Origin: a bacterium
GTDB taxonomy: Bacteria; Sysuimicrobiota; Sysuimicrobiia; Sysuimicrobiales; Kaftiobacteriaceae
Direction: 5' to 3'
Length of the DNA stretch: 64,000 nt
Assembly (NCBI GenBank): GCA_036004445.1
Contig: DASYRL010000012.1
Location: 23,853-87,852, forward strand
Under the pieces are notes generated by a model, which did no database searches, was not told where the DNA came from, and saw only the letters and a list, made by a program, of their open reading frames with translations. The translations under genes were made by a program, and so were the position numbers. This document shows, piece after piece, positions 16,767 to 51,963 of the stretch. Each line of letters opens with the position of its first letter. The stretch's first letter is position 1.

Positions 16767-16840
16767 GCGGGGATAGCTCAATGGTAGAGCTCCAGCCTTC
16801 CAAGCTGGTTATGCGGGTTCGATTCCCGTTCCCCGCTCCA
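16767..16840 (+). tRNA. tRNA-Gly (anticodon TCC), CCA encoded
   Basis: GCGGGGATAGCTCAATGGTAGAGC..., anticodon loop CTTCCAA, T-loop GGTTCGATTCC, acceptor 3' TCCCCGC-T-CCA. Confidence 0.9.
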
Positions 16841-16869
16841 TGAACCACTGGCTGCACTCAGGTTCATGG
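16838..16869. repeat. REP-like 32-nt hairpin, copy 3 (reverse orientation), sharing the CCA of tRNA-Gly
   Basis: ccatgaacc-actggctgcactca-ggttcatgg; same stem as 51932..51963 and 26522..26553. Confidence 0.8.
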
Positions 16870-17020
16870 CGATGCCATGTTTCTCGCTAAGATCTTCTTC
16901 AGATTCTTCAGGCGCCGACGATCGGGACCACCTCGACCATCGGCAAGAGGACTTCGCCGGTGGCAGGCCGAATTCAGTCTGAAATCAAGCGGAAGTCATC
17001 AATCCAGTGAGGTGAATTGG

Positions 17021-17491
17021 ATGAGGCGAGTGCTCGCAGTCGTCCTGTGTGCCCTCTTGATCATGATCGCCACGGCCGTGAGTGGTCAGGGACGCATCGA
17101 CCCCAACGGTCGGCCGACCGCGTACGATCCGGAAGGGCAGCAGTCGTTGTGGATCTGGTTCGACGGCGACGTCTGGCGCGTCCGCGCGACGACCCAGAAG
17201 ACCCGGCATGTCTTCAACGGGTGGGTGCAGTTCCAGCGCGGGCTGCTGGCGCTCGGGAAGGATGACATCGAAGGCAACGTCGACATCGTCTCCCGCTTTG
17301 GCGACCGCGTCGGCTTCCATCTCGTCGCCGCGGGCGACGTGGACGGATTCAACCTGCGCACCGCGCGGGGGACGCCGGTGACGTTCTATGTCGAGATCGA
17401 CGGGCGCACCGGAGGCAAAGCGCTGGAGAAGATCTTCGTCGGGCGGCGGAACCGGAATCCCAGCGGCAACCCGTTCACGCTGTACCCGTAG
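17021..17491 (+). CDS. secreted hypothetical protein (signal peptide)
   Basis: ATG 17021 behind GTGAGGTGA RBS; N-terminal MRRVLAVVLCALLIMIATAVSG signal; ORF opens earlier (16877) in lower-GC DNA. Confidence 0.5.
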   Translation: MRRVLAVVLCALLIMIATAVSGQGRIDPNGRPTAYDPEGQQSLWIWFDGDVWRVRATTQKTRHVFNGWVQFQRGLLALGKDDIEGNVDIVSRFGDRVGFHLVAAGDVDGFNLRTARGTPVTFYVEIDGRTGGKALEKIFVGRRNRNPSGNPFTLYP

Positions 17492-17558
17492 TCTGAATCG
17501 CGGTTTCCTCTCAGCTGGCCCGGTACGCCGCCGGCGTGCCGGGCCTATTATTGAATTG

Positions 17559-18425
17559 ATGACGGCGCACATCCTCGACGGACGGGCGGTCGCGGCGCAG
17601 GTCGAAGCCGAGGTGGCGGCACAGGTGCGCGTGGTGACCGAGCAGGCCGGCACCTCGCCCGGACTGGCGGCCATCCTCGTTGGCGATGATGCCGCGTCGG
17701 CGCTCTACGTCCGGCGGAAGGGGGAAGCCGCGGGGCGCACCGGGATTCGTTCCGAAACCTACCAGCTCCCCGCCGAGACGGCCGAACAGGACGTCCTCAG
17801 CCTCATCGATGAGCTCAATGCCCGGCCGGACATTCACGGCATCCTCCCGCAGCAGCCGATGCCCCCGCAGATCAATCCCGACCACGTGTTTGCGCGCCTG
17901 GATCCCCGCAAGGACGTGGACGGTCTGAGCCCCGCCAACCTCGCCGCGCTCCTCGCCGGGCGGCCCGACCTCGTGCCCTGCACGCCCTCGGGGATCATGG
18001 TGCTGCTGGCTCACGCCGGGGTCGATCCCGCGGGGCTGGACGCCGTGGTGATCGGCCGCAGTCTGATCGTCGGCCGTCCGATCGCCTTGCTGCTGCTGCA
18101 AGCGAACGCGACCGTCACATGGTGCCACACGCGCACTCGCGAACTGGCCTCACACACGCGTCGGGCGGACATCCTGATCGCGGCCGCGGGCCGGCCCGGG
18201 CTGGTCACGGGCGAGATGGTCAAACCCGGAGCCGTCGTGATTGACGTCGGGATCACCCGCGTCAACGGCAAGTTGAGAGGCGACGTTGACTACGCCTCCG
18301 CCGCCGCCGTCGCGGGATGGATTACCCCCGTCCCCGGCGGCGTCGGGCCAATGACCATCGCAATGCTGCTTCGAAATACCGTCCAGGCTGCCGCTGGGCT
18401 CCTGCGAGTCCCTCGAACCATCTAG
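17559..18425 (+). CDS. folD: bifunctional methylenetetrahydrofolate dehydrogenase / methenyl-THF cyclohydrolase
   Basis: ILVGDDAASALYVRRK, PCTPSGIM, GRSLIVGRP, PVPGGVGPMTIAMLL blocks. Confidence 0.92.
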   Translation: MTAHILDGRAVAAQVEAEVAAQVRVVTEQAGTSPGLAAILVGDDAASALYVRRKGEAAGRTGIRSETYQLPAETAEQDVLSLIDELNARPDIHGILPQQPMPPQINPDHVFARLDPRKDVDGLSPANLAALLAGRPDLVPCTPSGIMVLLAHAGVDPAGLDAVVIGRSLIVGRPIALLLLQANATVTWCHTRTRELASHTRRADILIAAAGRPGLVTGEMVKPGAVVIDVGITRVNGKLRGDVDYASAAAVAGWITPVPGGVGPMTIAMLLRNTVQAAAGLLRVPRTI

Positions 18426-18454
18426 ACTTTTGAATATGTGGATCGGTGTCCCAA

Positions 18455-50055: not shown

Positions 50056-50244
50056 TCCCTTCAGGATGAAGAAACCAGACGACTCAAGACCATTCGTGCC
50101 GGTGCCTCACCCCCTCTCCCGTGGTGCCGAGAGTATTCTCGCCCCCGCCACGCCATCCTCCACGCAGAGGAGACGCTAGGGGGTCGGAGAACTACCGTGG
50201 CATCCCAGCACCGTGTGGTCGTCAGCGTGAAGAGGAGGTAGGGA

Positions 50245-51066
50245 ATGAGAAGCCGAGGCATCGTATGGTGGGCACTCCTGCTGGCCGTGGCCCTGGCCGT
50301 CGTCGGGTGCCAGCGGCAGCAGGCGGAGCAGCCTGCACCGGCTCCCCAGCCGGCGTCGCAGTTGCCGGACCTGGGTGGGCGGACGGTCCGGGTCGCGACG
50401 GATGCAACCTATCCGCCGTTCGAAATGCTCGACGCGAGTAAGACCATCATCGGATACGACATCGACCTGATCACCGAGGTCTGCAAGCTCGTCAACTGTA
50501 AGCCCGACATCAAGAGCACCGCCTGGGACGGGATCTTCCCGGCGTTGCAGAAGGGCGACTACGACGCCGTGATCTCCGGGGTGACCATCACCGCGGAGCG
50601 CGACAAGACCATGGACTTCAGCGATCCGTACATCGAGGTGGGGCAGGTCGTGCTCGTGCGCGCCGACGAGACCCGCATCACCGGGGTCAACGATTTAACC
50701 GAGCGGACCCTCGCCGTCCAGCGCGGCACGACCAACGACGAAGCCGCGACCAAGATGCAGAAGGAGGGGAAGGTCAAGGAGGTCAAGCGCTTTCCGACCT
50801 TCGACCTGGCGGTGAAGTCGCTGCTCAACGGCGACGTCGACGCCGTCATCATCGACAACACGGCTGCGTCCGGCTACATGGGGACCAATCCGGACAAGCT
50901 GAAGATCGCCGGTGACAAGTTCACCAGCGAGGGGCTGGGCATTGTCGTCCGCGAGGGCGACAAGGAGCTGCAGGGCGCATTTAACGCCGCGCTGAAGACG
51001 CTGAAGGAGAACGGGACGCTGGACCGGCTCTACCAGAAGTGGTTCGTCGAGTATAAGCCGTCTTAA
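50245..51066 (+). CDS. amino-acid ABC transporter substrate-binding protein (family 3)
   Basis: Signal peptide, [17 protein letters not shown] motifs. Confidence 0.88.
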
Positions 51067-51073
51067 CGGCGGC

Positions 51074-51913
51074 ATGGATCCCACGCCGTCCGGTCCGGTG
51101 CCGGAGCTGACCGAGCACCCCGGCCGCGGCCGGCTGGTCTCGGTCGCCTTGCTGGAGAGGGCCCCCTGGTGGGCCCTCGTCCTGCTTATCGGCGGCATCG
51201 CCGCGGTCACGGCGATGTTGCGTTCGCCGGTGTACGTGGAGACCTACGACTTCCTCGCGCCGGCGATCCTCGTCACGCTCCAGCTCGCCGTGTACGCCTA
51301 CGTGGTGGCGATGCTGCTGGGGCTGATCGCGGCGCTGGGGCAGATCTCCAAGAACCCCTTCGTCTCCACGCCCGCCCGGCTGTACGTCGAGGTGATCCGG
51401 GGCGTCCCGCTGCTGGTGCAGATCATCTACATCGCCTTCGTGCTGACGCCGGCGCTCGCCGATCTGTTTCGCGGCGCAGGCCTGGCGTCGGTCGGCCTAT
51501 GGTTCCGCCGCGACATCGTGCGCGCCGTGCTGGCCCTGGGCATCGGCTACGGCGCGTACCTGGCGGAGGTGTACCGGGCGGGGATTCAGTCGATCGGCAG
51601 GGGCCAGACCGAGGCCGCCCGCTCGCTGGGGATGACGCCGTGGCAGACGATGCGGTACGTCGTCCTGCCCCAGGCGATCCGCGTGATCCTGCCGCCGCTG
51701 GGGAATGACTTCGTGTCCATGCTGAAGGACTCATCGCTGGCGTCGGTGATCTCGGTGCAGGAGCTCACCTACAGCGGTCAGCTGCTCAACGCGCGAACGT
51801 TCCGCTCATTCGAGACGTACAACATGGTGGCGCTGTTGTACCTGATCATGACGTTGGCCGGGTCGCTCGGCGTGCGTGGGCTGGAGCGGTGGGCGTCGAG
51901 GGGGAAGCACTAA
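51074..51913 (+). CDS. amino-acid ABC transporter permease (His/Glu/Gln/Arg family)
   Basis: EAA loop region EAARSLGMTPWQTMRYVVLPQA. Confidence 0.88.
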   Translation: MDPTPSGPVPELTEHPGRGRLVSVALLERAPWWALVLLIGGIAAVTAMLRSPVYVETYDFLAPAILVTLQLAVYAYVVAMLLGLIAALGQISKNPFVSTPARLYVEVIRGVPLLVQIIYIAFVLTPALADLFRGAGLASVGLWFRRDIVRAVLALGIGYGAYLAEVYRAGIQSIGRGQTEAARSLGMTPWQTMRYVVLPQAIRVILPPLGNDFVSMLKDSSLASVISVQELTYSGQLLNARTFRSFETYNMVALLYLIMTLAGSLGVRGLERWASRGKH

Positions 51914-51931
51914 CGAGGACCGCGGGCGTCG

Positions 51932-51963
51932 CCATGAACCCGAGCGCAGCGAGTGGTTCATGG
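51932..51963. repeat. REP-like 32-nt hairpin, copy 2, sharing the CCA of tRNA-Val
   Basis: ccatgaacc-cgagcgcagcgagt-ggttcatgg; stem carries an A:T pair where copy 1 has C:G. Confidence 0.8.

Follow-up and report, generated by a model that had tools for sequence, protein, structure and literature searches.

A hairpin element shared across bacterial phyla, its preference for tRNA gene ends and a candidate GIY-YIG nuclease partner

The repetitive extragenic palindromic (REP) sequences and bacterial interspersed mosaic elements (BIMEs) of Enterobacteria and Pseudomonas are imperfect palindromes of 20-40 nt, present in many extragenic copies and often as inverted pairs with a short linker. They act as single-strand hairpins, and a dedicated nuclease-type partner gene, that of the REP-associated tyrosine transposase (RAYT) of the Y1/HUH type, is flanked by copies. 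Rickettsia palindromic elements (RPEs), of 100-150 bp, are selfish palindromes tolerated in frame in protein genes and in RNA genes; they have no known partner gene. The ends of IS200/IS605 elements and of their miniature derivatives, the palindrome-associated transposable elements (PATEs), form hairpins that carry an extrahelical T, undergo recognition on a single strand and pair with the target through their foot bases; IS608 is the known case of such guide-target pairing. Eukaryotic SLX1 cuts branched and stem-loop DNA. For the stand-alone Slx1-like branch of the GIY-YIG superfamily, a survey of 2006 assigned no function (PMC1564403). A free-standing GIY-YIG homing endonuclease gene, segB of phage T4, lies in a tRNA cluster (PMC2330249). 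The present analysis concerns a hairpin, called here the H element, found in three copies in a window of 64,000 nt, i.e., the whole analysed stretch of contig DASYRL010000012.1 (assembly GCA_036004445.1, positions 23,853 to 87,852, Kaftiobacteriaceae, Sysuimicrobiota).

With moderate confidence, the hairpins of the window can be taken as solo, non-autonomous copies of a widespread mobile palindrome that resembles REPs and miniature inverted-repeat transposable elements (MITEs) and is probably mobilised via a GIY-YIG nuclease. The element is mobile, being gained and lost between close relatives. Its sequence is nearly identical across very different phyla, and it prefers the exact ends of tRNA and transfer-messenger RNA (tmRNA) genes. 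In other genomes, the hairpin is physically linked to GIY-YIG cassettes and stands upstream in them.

Within the window, TGAACC-N8-24-GGTTCA occurs three times, against 0.02 occurrences expected from shuffled sequence. A covariance model trained on 76 distinct family members and run with filters off recovered exactly these three copies (scores in Table 1), the next match reaching 12.6 bits. The three sequences singled out by a first-pass annotation were found where it had placed them; its unit of 32 nt had to be enlarged to 34 nt or more, with a conserved GGC-N2-3-GCC added on the 5' side. Copy 1 lies in the spacer between dnaG and rpoD, both recognised by Pfam as that annotation had proposed, and ends 8 nt, rather than 9 nt, before the rpoD start codon. 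Copy 2 starts 18 nt past the stop codon of a convergent ABC permease gene, and its 3'-terminal TGG (51961-51963) is the complement of the tRNA-Val CCA. The stems of copies 3 and 2 begin with the encoded CCA of tRNA-Gly and of tRNA-Val, respectively, as their first three bases, in identical relative orientation; ARAGORN and Rfam agree on the tRNA ends, which bears out the earlier observation. Copy 3 is the most decayed: the A.G of its tandem G.A is gone, and both inner G.T wobbles fall on the strand that carries the G.A motif (the G/A strand). This strand is sense to dnaG-rpoD in copy 1 and to the permease 3' end in copy 2; in copy 3 it is antisense to all surroundings. The 5' GGC-NN(N)-GCC motif is conserved in the flanks of the 76 copies, and adjacent inverted hairpins meet at a junction ...CATGGC-NN-GCCATG..., of which the motif is probably a remnant left by an inverted partner hairpin.

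The family consensus is GCC[A/C]TGAACC-CGAGCGNAGCGAGT-GGTTCA[T/G]GGC. Its architecture comprises a 10-bp stem, an invariant bulged T, one covarying pair, a tandem G.A/A.G and a 2-bp GC clamp closing a GNA triloop. When the structure (((((((((((..((...))..).)))))))))) is laid on 76 distinct 34-mers, 95.5% of the cells are paired, and double changes occur in 11 of the 13 pairs. The covariation score of 0.344 compares with 0.131 in shuffles, none of 500 reaching 0.344, and slid controls remain at or below 0.07. The 34-mers were picked partly by outer-stem pairing, so that only the free outer positions in the pattern-selected set and the inner pairs are independent tests. The free outer positions covary in the 60 distinct pattern-selected copies (T-A 48, C-G 4, T.G 6; A-T 28, C-G 21, G.T 4), and so do the inner pairs, unused in selection, in all 76 (C-G 64, U-A 6, G-C 3; G-C 62, A-U 10). 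The compensatory change of C to A and G to T noted earlier between two window copies is real and is one case of a wide covariation, and the view of the hairpin as a conserved structured element is upheld by true stem covariation. Relaxing the structural search brought up relatives with other stems (GTACC/GGTAC, GCACC/GGTGC) and variable apices; their first inner pair, likewise unused in selection, is C-G in 13, T-A in 6 and G-C in 5, the 5' GA is kept in 24 of 26, and the next pair is G-C in 12 and A-T in 9. The bases that never vary are the ACC/GGT on the inner side of the stem, the two GA dinucleotides and the T preceding GGT.

ViennaRNA, used independently, folds the G/A strand, taken as RNA, into the same structure (-19.8 and -17.6 kcal/mol); the minimum-free-energy fold of copy 1 (-19.8 kcal/mol) is the covariation structure. 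The apex, GC-GNA-GC, fits by sequence the definition of the d(GCGNAGC) mini-hairpin (alignment A2, columns 14-20: G-C in 62 of 76 with A-T in 10, C-G in 71 of 76, A18 in at least 90%). Melting temperatures are 76.5 °C for the DNA hairpin d(GCGAAGC) and only 39 °C for a related hairpin of RNA, r(GCGAAAGC) (PMC13037366). Rfam 15 gave no match over the hairpins at the gathering threshold, nor at E values up to 10 on short stretches. A kink-turn, with a 3-nt bulge 5' of the tandem G.A, is excluded, as a covarying Watson-Crick pair (N-N') precedes the G.A and a single T of the 3' strand is all that bulges out; this pair and the place of the bulge also exclude a sarcin-ricin reading of the tandem G.A. 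An integron attC site (R''/R' boxes RYYYAAC and GTTRRRY) was rejected as well, for the stem reads ..TGAACC/GGTTCA.. and no integrase recurs at the 71 loci described below.

For the folding strand, hairpins were detected strand-blind and then sorted by the side of the bulged T. The bulged-T (G/A) strand holds 117 G.T against 44 A.C mispairs, while unrelated control hairpins hold 171 against 198; this excess of G.T indicates that the G/A strand is the one that folds. Seventeen of the 76 copies adjoin tRNA genes of 12 species with the CCA paired into the stem, and in them the G/A strand is antisense to the tRNA 17:0, which argues against a role in pre-tRNA. Most copies do not adjoin tRNAs. In spacers of co-directional genes, by crude open reading frame (ORF) calls, the G/A strand is sense in 5 and antisense in 7. 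No T-run or terminator-like site follows any of the three window copies.

The dnaG-rpoD junction provides an empty site. In four relatives (L169, L170, L171 and L172, RpoD 95, 90, 90 and 86% identical), 5 nt separate dnaG from rpoD or the two genes overlap, and against these relatives the window carries an insertion of 39 nt (Table 1), the first triplet of which is the present dnaG stop codon. The covariance model found no hairpin copy in about 80 kb of these relatives. The terminal (A)GGG of the copy 1 stem (26550-26553) aligns with host AGG in the relatives, and these stem bases appear to be pre-existing host sequence; a target-site duplication of AGG or AGGG was considered and fits worse than a plain 39-nt insertion. 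The DnaG of L171 (7003-10026) is 1007 aa long against about 600 aa in the others and gives a faint intein-splicing Pfam match, possibly marking a primase intein. At tRNA-Val, two relatives that have the promoter region in common with the window (L173, L175) have ordinary hairpin-plus-T terminators directly after the CCA and no hairpin element, and homology with the window breaks exactly after this CCA. Between the ABC permease and tRNA-Val these relatives carry 1.1-1.7 kb with two to three small genes (L173 3347-5089, L175 3311-4373), which are missing in the window, where the two genes are 47 nt apart (51914-51960) with the hairpin at the junction. This arrangement suggests that sequence was deleted or rearranged at the element. 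Another contig of the window's population (L178, JGI 3300036864, Ga0376053_0181913) stops within copy 2, which is what assemblers breaking at repeats would produce.

The pattern GAACCNGAGNNNAGCNAGTGGTTC was scanned over 185,579 species genomes, for which about 4 chance matches were estimated. It gave 71 loci, all in metagenome-assembled genomes (MAGs) or single-amplified genomes (SAGs) with GC contents of 37-70%. In Patescibacteria, the element is present in Peribacteria, Gracilibacteria, Falkow-, Kerfeld-, Jackson-, Levy- and Shapirobacteria; other lineages are Omnitrophota, Margulisiibacteriota, Planctomycetota, Spirochaetia, ANGP1 and unclassified soil MAGs. This taxonomy follows the MAG labels, in which mis-binned contigs may occur. 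Several genomes have multiple loci. Among them, SMAG_U4708 (GCA_036505015.1), a relative of the organism of the window by an ABC permease 89% identical, has 6 loci; together with the empty site in four relatives, this bears out the alternative raised in the first-pass annotation, that of a small mobile palindromic unit. The window itself matches contigs of JGI metagenome 3300036860, and its RpoD relatives are labelled Armatimonadota or 'bacterium'. Neither the hairpin pattern nor the GIY-YIG protein was found in IMG/VR, PLSDB or INPHARED, where the sole match was at chance level (E 0.5), and no description of the hairpin element was found in the searchable literature, by sequence string or topic.

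Clustering of the ORFs at the 71 loci revealed a GIY-YIG protein of 80-95 aa as the only recurrent neighbour; the clusters placed it at 8 loci and tblastn at 10. Overall, the proteins have lengths of 79-110 aa and consist of the catalytic domain only (PF01541 at E 1e-15). Their profile matches the PDB entries 1zg2 (2.4e-11) and 1ywl (9.5e-10) and SLX1 (1.6e-4), by which the partner belongs, as judged from sequence, to the stand-alone Slx1-like/UPF0213 branch of the superfamily. PADLOC, PHROGs and NCBIfam returned motif-level matches only, with no defence or phage family beyond that, and the searchable literature describes no function, tRNA linkage or hairpin partner for bacterial Slx1-like/UPF0213 proteins. 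The cassette runs from the tRNA CCA and a first hairpin, H1 (G/A strand antisense), through a spacer of 20-110 nt, CGAGTGGTTCAT and a second hairpin, H2 (G/A sense), to the nuclease ATG about 25 nt further on. H2 is always sense and 20-40 nt before the ATG; H1, although antisense to tRNA and nuclease gene without exception, has the same bias of wobbles to one strand. Just 5' of H2, CGAGTGGTTCAT (L022, L024, L033, L037, L062, L064) is the reverse complement of the tRNA-proximal half of H1, so that a long-range helix of 13-14 bp could form in place of the local hairpin. The locus L084 has a compensated hairpin variant, CCATGAACT..AGTTCATGG.

The linkage was also approached starting from the protein. 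Of four homologues examined independently, three sit 70-170 nt downstream of a tRNA. In 80 metagenome loci retrieved by protein similarity only, a same-strand tRNA lies within 400 nt upstream in 50 and a tmRNA in 3 (53 of 80 together). A G.A-type hairpin is upstream in 26 of the 80 and downstream in 1, and a perfect hairpin of at least 9 bp is upstream in 52 of 60 protein-selected loci. Loci at tRNA-Asn and tRNA-Ser have short-loop relatives with the loop CNACGT or its complement, the first hairpin again containing the CCA. A repeated 11-12 nt from the 3' end of tRNA-Gln flanks the L086 cassette on both sides. At the same locus (1430-1480, 2340-2403), one hairpin pair precedes the GIY-YIG gene and also follows a neighbouring 23S_rRNA_IVP (four-helix-bundle) gene, a type of small gene often regarded as selfish.

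Copies are not confined to such sites. In four Peribacteria (Table 1), the hairpin is in frame in a paralogous gene for a Cys-rich protein of about 580 aa, adding ..GAAMNPSEASGSW.. relative to hairpin-less paralogues, and one of these copies (L046) has the opposite orientation at the same site. In genome CALAOR01 (L005, L015, L034, L059, L060, L066, L067), the hairpin is the apex of a MITE-like palindrome of about 180 nt with at least 7 copies and near-identical arms. Copies may be nested within one another, and inverted pairs are common. In every context the outermost stem pairs use host bases, whether the tRNA CCA, the GGG at the 5' end of tRNA-Ala or tmRNA, the AGG before rpoD or a TGG codon.

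Table 1. Coordinates of the H element copies and associated features (window positions unless a locus is named)
Feature	Position	Strand	Details
Hairpin copy 1	26521-26554	+	G/A (folding) strand on +; GCCCTGAACC-CGAGCAAAGCGAGT-GGTTCAGGGT; covariance model 56.4 bits
Hairpin copy 2	51931-51964	+	G/A strand on +; covariance model 56.8 bits
Hairpin copy 3	16837-16870	-	G/A strand on -; covariance model 33.4 bits on - vs 15.3 bits on +
5' motif GGC-NN(N)-GCC, copy 1	26516-26523	+	GGCATGCC; precedes/overlaps stem
5' motif equivalent, copy 2	51925-51933		GGCGTCGCC
5' motif equivalent, copy 3	16868-16876	-	GGCATCGCC
39-nt insertion vs relatives	26511-26549	+	TAAGAGGCATGCCCTGAACCCGAGCAAAGCGAGTGGTTC; alignment with L169, L170, L171, L172
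DnaG gene	24687-26513		Identity confirmed by Pfam
RpoD gene	ATG at 26562		Identity confirmed by Pfam
tRNA-Val(GAC)	51961-52037	-	ARAGORN; Rfam tRNA 51964-52037; encoded CCA common to copy 2
tRNA-Gly(TCC)	16767-16840	+	ARAGORN; Rfam tRNA 16767-16837; CCA 16838-16840 common to copy 3
Peribacteria in-frame copies	L028 6822-6853; L036 5457-5488; L046 6509-6540; L068 5045-5076
tRNA-end duplications	L013 1564-1800; L021 5476-6200; L026 1700-2000; L040/L065; L086; L097; L109; L154; L167

Two further features of the window stand apart from the H element. The spacer between rpoD and ahcY (27669-27737) contains a long imperfect hairpin, GTCATTGCGAGCGAAGCGAAGCAATC ... CTCGCAATGAC; the corresponding spacer holds a full variant of it in L171 and a 3' remnant in L169, but nothing of the kind in L170 or L172. 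The first-pass annotation had the loop core of the short hairpin recurring in its arms; the GA-GCGAAGC-GA core does recur (12 of 13 positions), in what is a second, different family of palindromes. An ORF of 286 aa on the minus strand (15575-16435), about 120 nt from tRNA-Tyr (16558-16644), matches Pfam LAGLIDADG_3 (homing-endonuclease-like, E 3e-7).

Among the other explanations, the one that survives best, at a rather low probability, regards the hairpin as an RNA structural or protein-binding module of transcripts, spread by selection for RNA function: in the 5' leader of the nuclease mRNA, at P12 of RNase P RNA or as a stabiliser within operons, dnaG-rpoD among them. RNase P RNA genes do contain an inverted hairpin pair on the P12 side, beside the conserved UAAGGGUG (L031 910-982, L004 801-901), and L020 has a single copy within a group I intron (2369-2400); the G/A sense is found inside both kinds of RNA. 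The constant sense orientation of H2 ahead of the nuclease gene and that of window copies 1 and 2 point the same way, and the G/A strand as RNA is 3 kcal/mol more stable than the complementary strand. However, the RNase P RNAs carry the pair in both senses, H1 keeps its wobble bias while antisense to both neighbours, and orientation to co-directional genes is close to random. Copy 3 is antisense to everything around it, and the hairpin is neither a kink-turn nor a member of a matched Rfam family.

It is improbable that the hairpin is a classical REP/BIME or a palindrome derived from IS200/IS605, with a Y1 (HUH) transposase or RAYT, encoded at another place in each genome, moving it in single-stranded form and GIY-YIG genes merely favouring the same sites. 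By analogy, the size, the imperfect palindrome and the bulged T resemble TnpA/RAYT substrates, the inverted pairs with a short linker resemble BIMEs, and the pairing of the outer stem with the target may be likened to that of IS608. On the other side, the GTAG/GTGG foot of REPs is absent, no RAYT recurs among the ORFs of the 71 loci, and no Y1 transposase recurs near these or near the 80 protein-selected loci. The sequence identity across phyla is unlike that of species-specific REPs, and the pairs are inverted, whereas the two ends of IS200/IS605 share one strand. The earlier label "REP-like" is accordingly apt as an analogy and goes no further, given the missing foot and the lack of a recurrent RAYT gene beside the copies.

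It is very improbable that the hairpin is leftover attachment (att) site sequence, part of the attP of integrase-type islands entering tRNA and tmRNA 3' ends. Direct duplications of the last 12-24 nt of the tRNA, ending in CCA, are found downstream of hairpins or GIY-YIG cassettes (Table 1) and bracket the cassettes; tandem arrays with units of 125 nt (L013) and 523 nt (L021) occur, and tmRNA genes are used as well. A hammerhead-like string, CUGACGAG..GAAAC, in the 523-nt unit was dropped for want of an Rfam match. Against such islands speak the cassette size of only 0.4-1.1 kb and the lack of a tRNA duplication at the copies within ORFs, RNase P RNA and the dnaG-rpoD spacer. No integrase gene recurs among the ORFs of the 71 loci, and none was seen at the loci with tRNA-end duplications. 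The solo copies of the window have no tRNA-end repeat. Least probable of all is the signal for tRNA 3'-end processing or termination favoured in the first-pass annotation, a trailer hairpin that would sequester the CCA and direct pre-tRNA maturation: the paired CCA at 12 tRNA species and an unrelated CCA-containing trailer hairpin in L086 (CCAATTTTGC..GCAAAATTGG) would suit it, but the strand that folds runs opposite to the tRNA, the tRNA-sense strand has C.U/U.C mismatches in place of the inner motif, T-runs are lacking after the window copies, the orthologous tRNA-Val genes use ordinary terminators, and most copies lie away from tRNAs, some of them inside genes.

Returning to a mobile palindrome with a GIY-YIG partner, the hairpin would act as DNA, either as an extruded hairpin or cruciform or as an exposed single strand; the higher melting temperature of the mini-hairpin as DNA and the near-even orientation to co-directional genes speak indirectly for this. 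A structure-specific GIY-YIG nuclease may recognise or cut it, and repair of the break or recombination would then copy or move the cassette, or only its hairpins, with joining via 2-4 nt of complementarity to the target. The constant orientation at tRNAs is most simply a legacy of the cassette, which has to run in the same direction as the tRNA. Several points weigh against this account. The tblastn search found no GIY-YIG gene or remnant in the window, whose three hairpins are accordingly best described as solo copies or remnants; nor is there such a gene in the examined loci of high-GC relatives with solo copies. The G.A-type hairpin accompanies the nuclease at only 26 of the 80 protein-selected loci, the rest having short-loop relatives or other hairpins. 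Nearest-neighbour DNA energies tie between the strands (-9.2 vs -9.1 kcal/mol). The G/A sense of the element within RNase P RNA, the group I intron and the nuclease 5' leader would also fit an RNA module, and the tRNA-end duplications look like integrase-type att sites. To our knowledge, no enzymology exists for the stand-alone Slx1-like/UPF0213 family, and we know of no way in which a minimal GIY-YIG domain could perform strand transfer by itself.

A bolder form of the same idea, to be regarded as tentative and rather unlikely, makes the hairpin the DNA substrate or landing pad of an unrecognised mobile element, spread over the Candidate Phyla Radiation (CPR) and several other phyla. Its UPF0213 nuclease would cut extruded hairpins or cruciforms and drive the copying of itself and of miniature hairpins, choosing targets via a few base pairs at the hairpin foot, preferably at the CCA end of tRNA or tmRNA genes. 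The window copies themselves are most likely passengers or cassette remnants with side effects only: copy 1 supplies the stop codon that dnaG now has and puts a stable hairpin 8 nt ahead of rpoD, and copy 2 replaces the terminator of tRNA-Val at the junction that lacks the 1.1-1.7 kb of the relatives.

If the reading as a mobile palindrome is correct, a family found across phyla, with an unusually well-defined non-Watson-Crick architecture, would join the short list of bacterial palindromic repeats (REP, RPE, PATE), and such repeats would be tied to a different nuclease superfamily. Bacterial Slx1-like/UPF0213 proteins would gain a concrete, testable substrate. The element accounts for spurious peptides (..MNPSEASGSW..), contig breaks, insertions in RNase P RNA and in proteins, and rearrangements of tRNA 3' ends in uncultured bacteria. 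In the window, it shows an essential junction, that of dnaG and rpoD, to have been recently remodelled by a selfish insertion.

Compared with the known systems, the H element shares with REPs and BIMEs the short palindrome in multiple copies (3 in 64 kb, 6 loci in SMAG_U4708), the common inverted pairs, the single-strand hairpin and a partner gene. It differs in having no GT(A/G)G foot in the consensus GCCnTGAACCCGAGCGnAGCGAGTGGTTCAnGGC or its flanks, in a partner of the GIY-YIG (Slx1-like) type rather than Y1/HUH, and in keeping the same sequence in many phyla, with precise tRNA/tmRNA ends and insertions inside RNA genes and ORFs. The in-frame copies of the Peribacteria family and those in RNase P RNA recall RPEs, which are longer, limited to Rickettsia and unrelated in sequence. 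The extrahelical T and the target pairing of the foot recall IS200/IS605 and PATEs; here, however, paired hairpins lie on opposite strands, no tnpA/tnpB cluster is present at the 71 loci, and a fixed tetranucleotide target is not demonstrated. Like segB, the partner is a small, selfish type of GIY-YIG gene lodged in a tRNA gene region. Seg proteins have a DNA-binding domain and are phage-borne, whereas the H partner amounts to no more than a catalytic domain of 85-95 aa, is chromosomal and always has structured hairpins ahead of it; a free-standing homing endonuclease was rejected on the sequence-based ground that no DNA-binding domain is fused to the catalytic one. By sequence, the partner stands with the prokaryotic Slx1-like proteins (UPF0213; 1zg2, 1ywl; PMC1564403). 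The apex has the form of the d(GCGNAGC) mini-hairpin, here flanked by a further tandem G.A, while the known natural examples of that hairpin are phage single-stranded DNA origins and N4 promoters and not dispersed chromosomal repeats (PMC13037366). By analogy, then, the H element would work like REP/BIME and RPE, yet it departs from REPs in its foot and in its lack of species specificity, and may be described as a selfish palindromic repeat with a new candidate partner enzyme.

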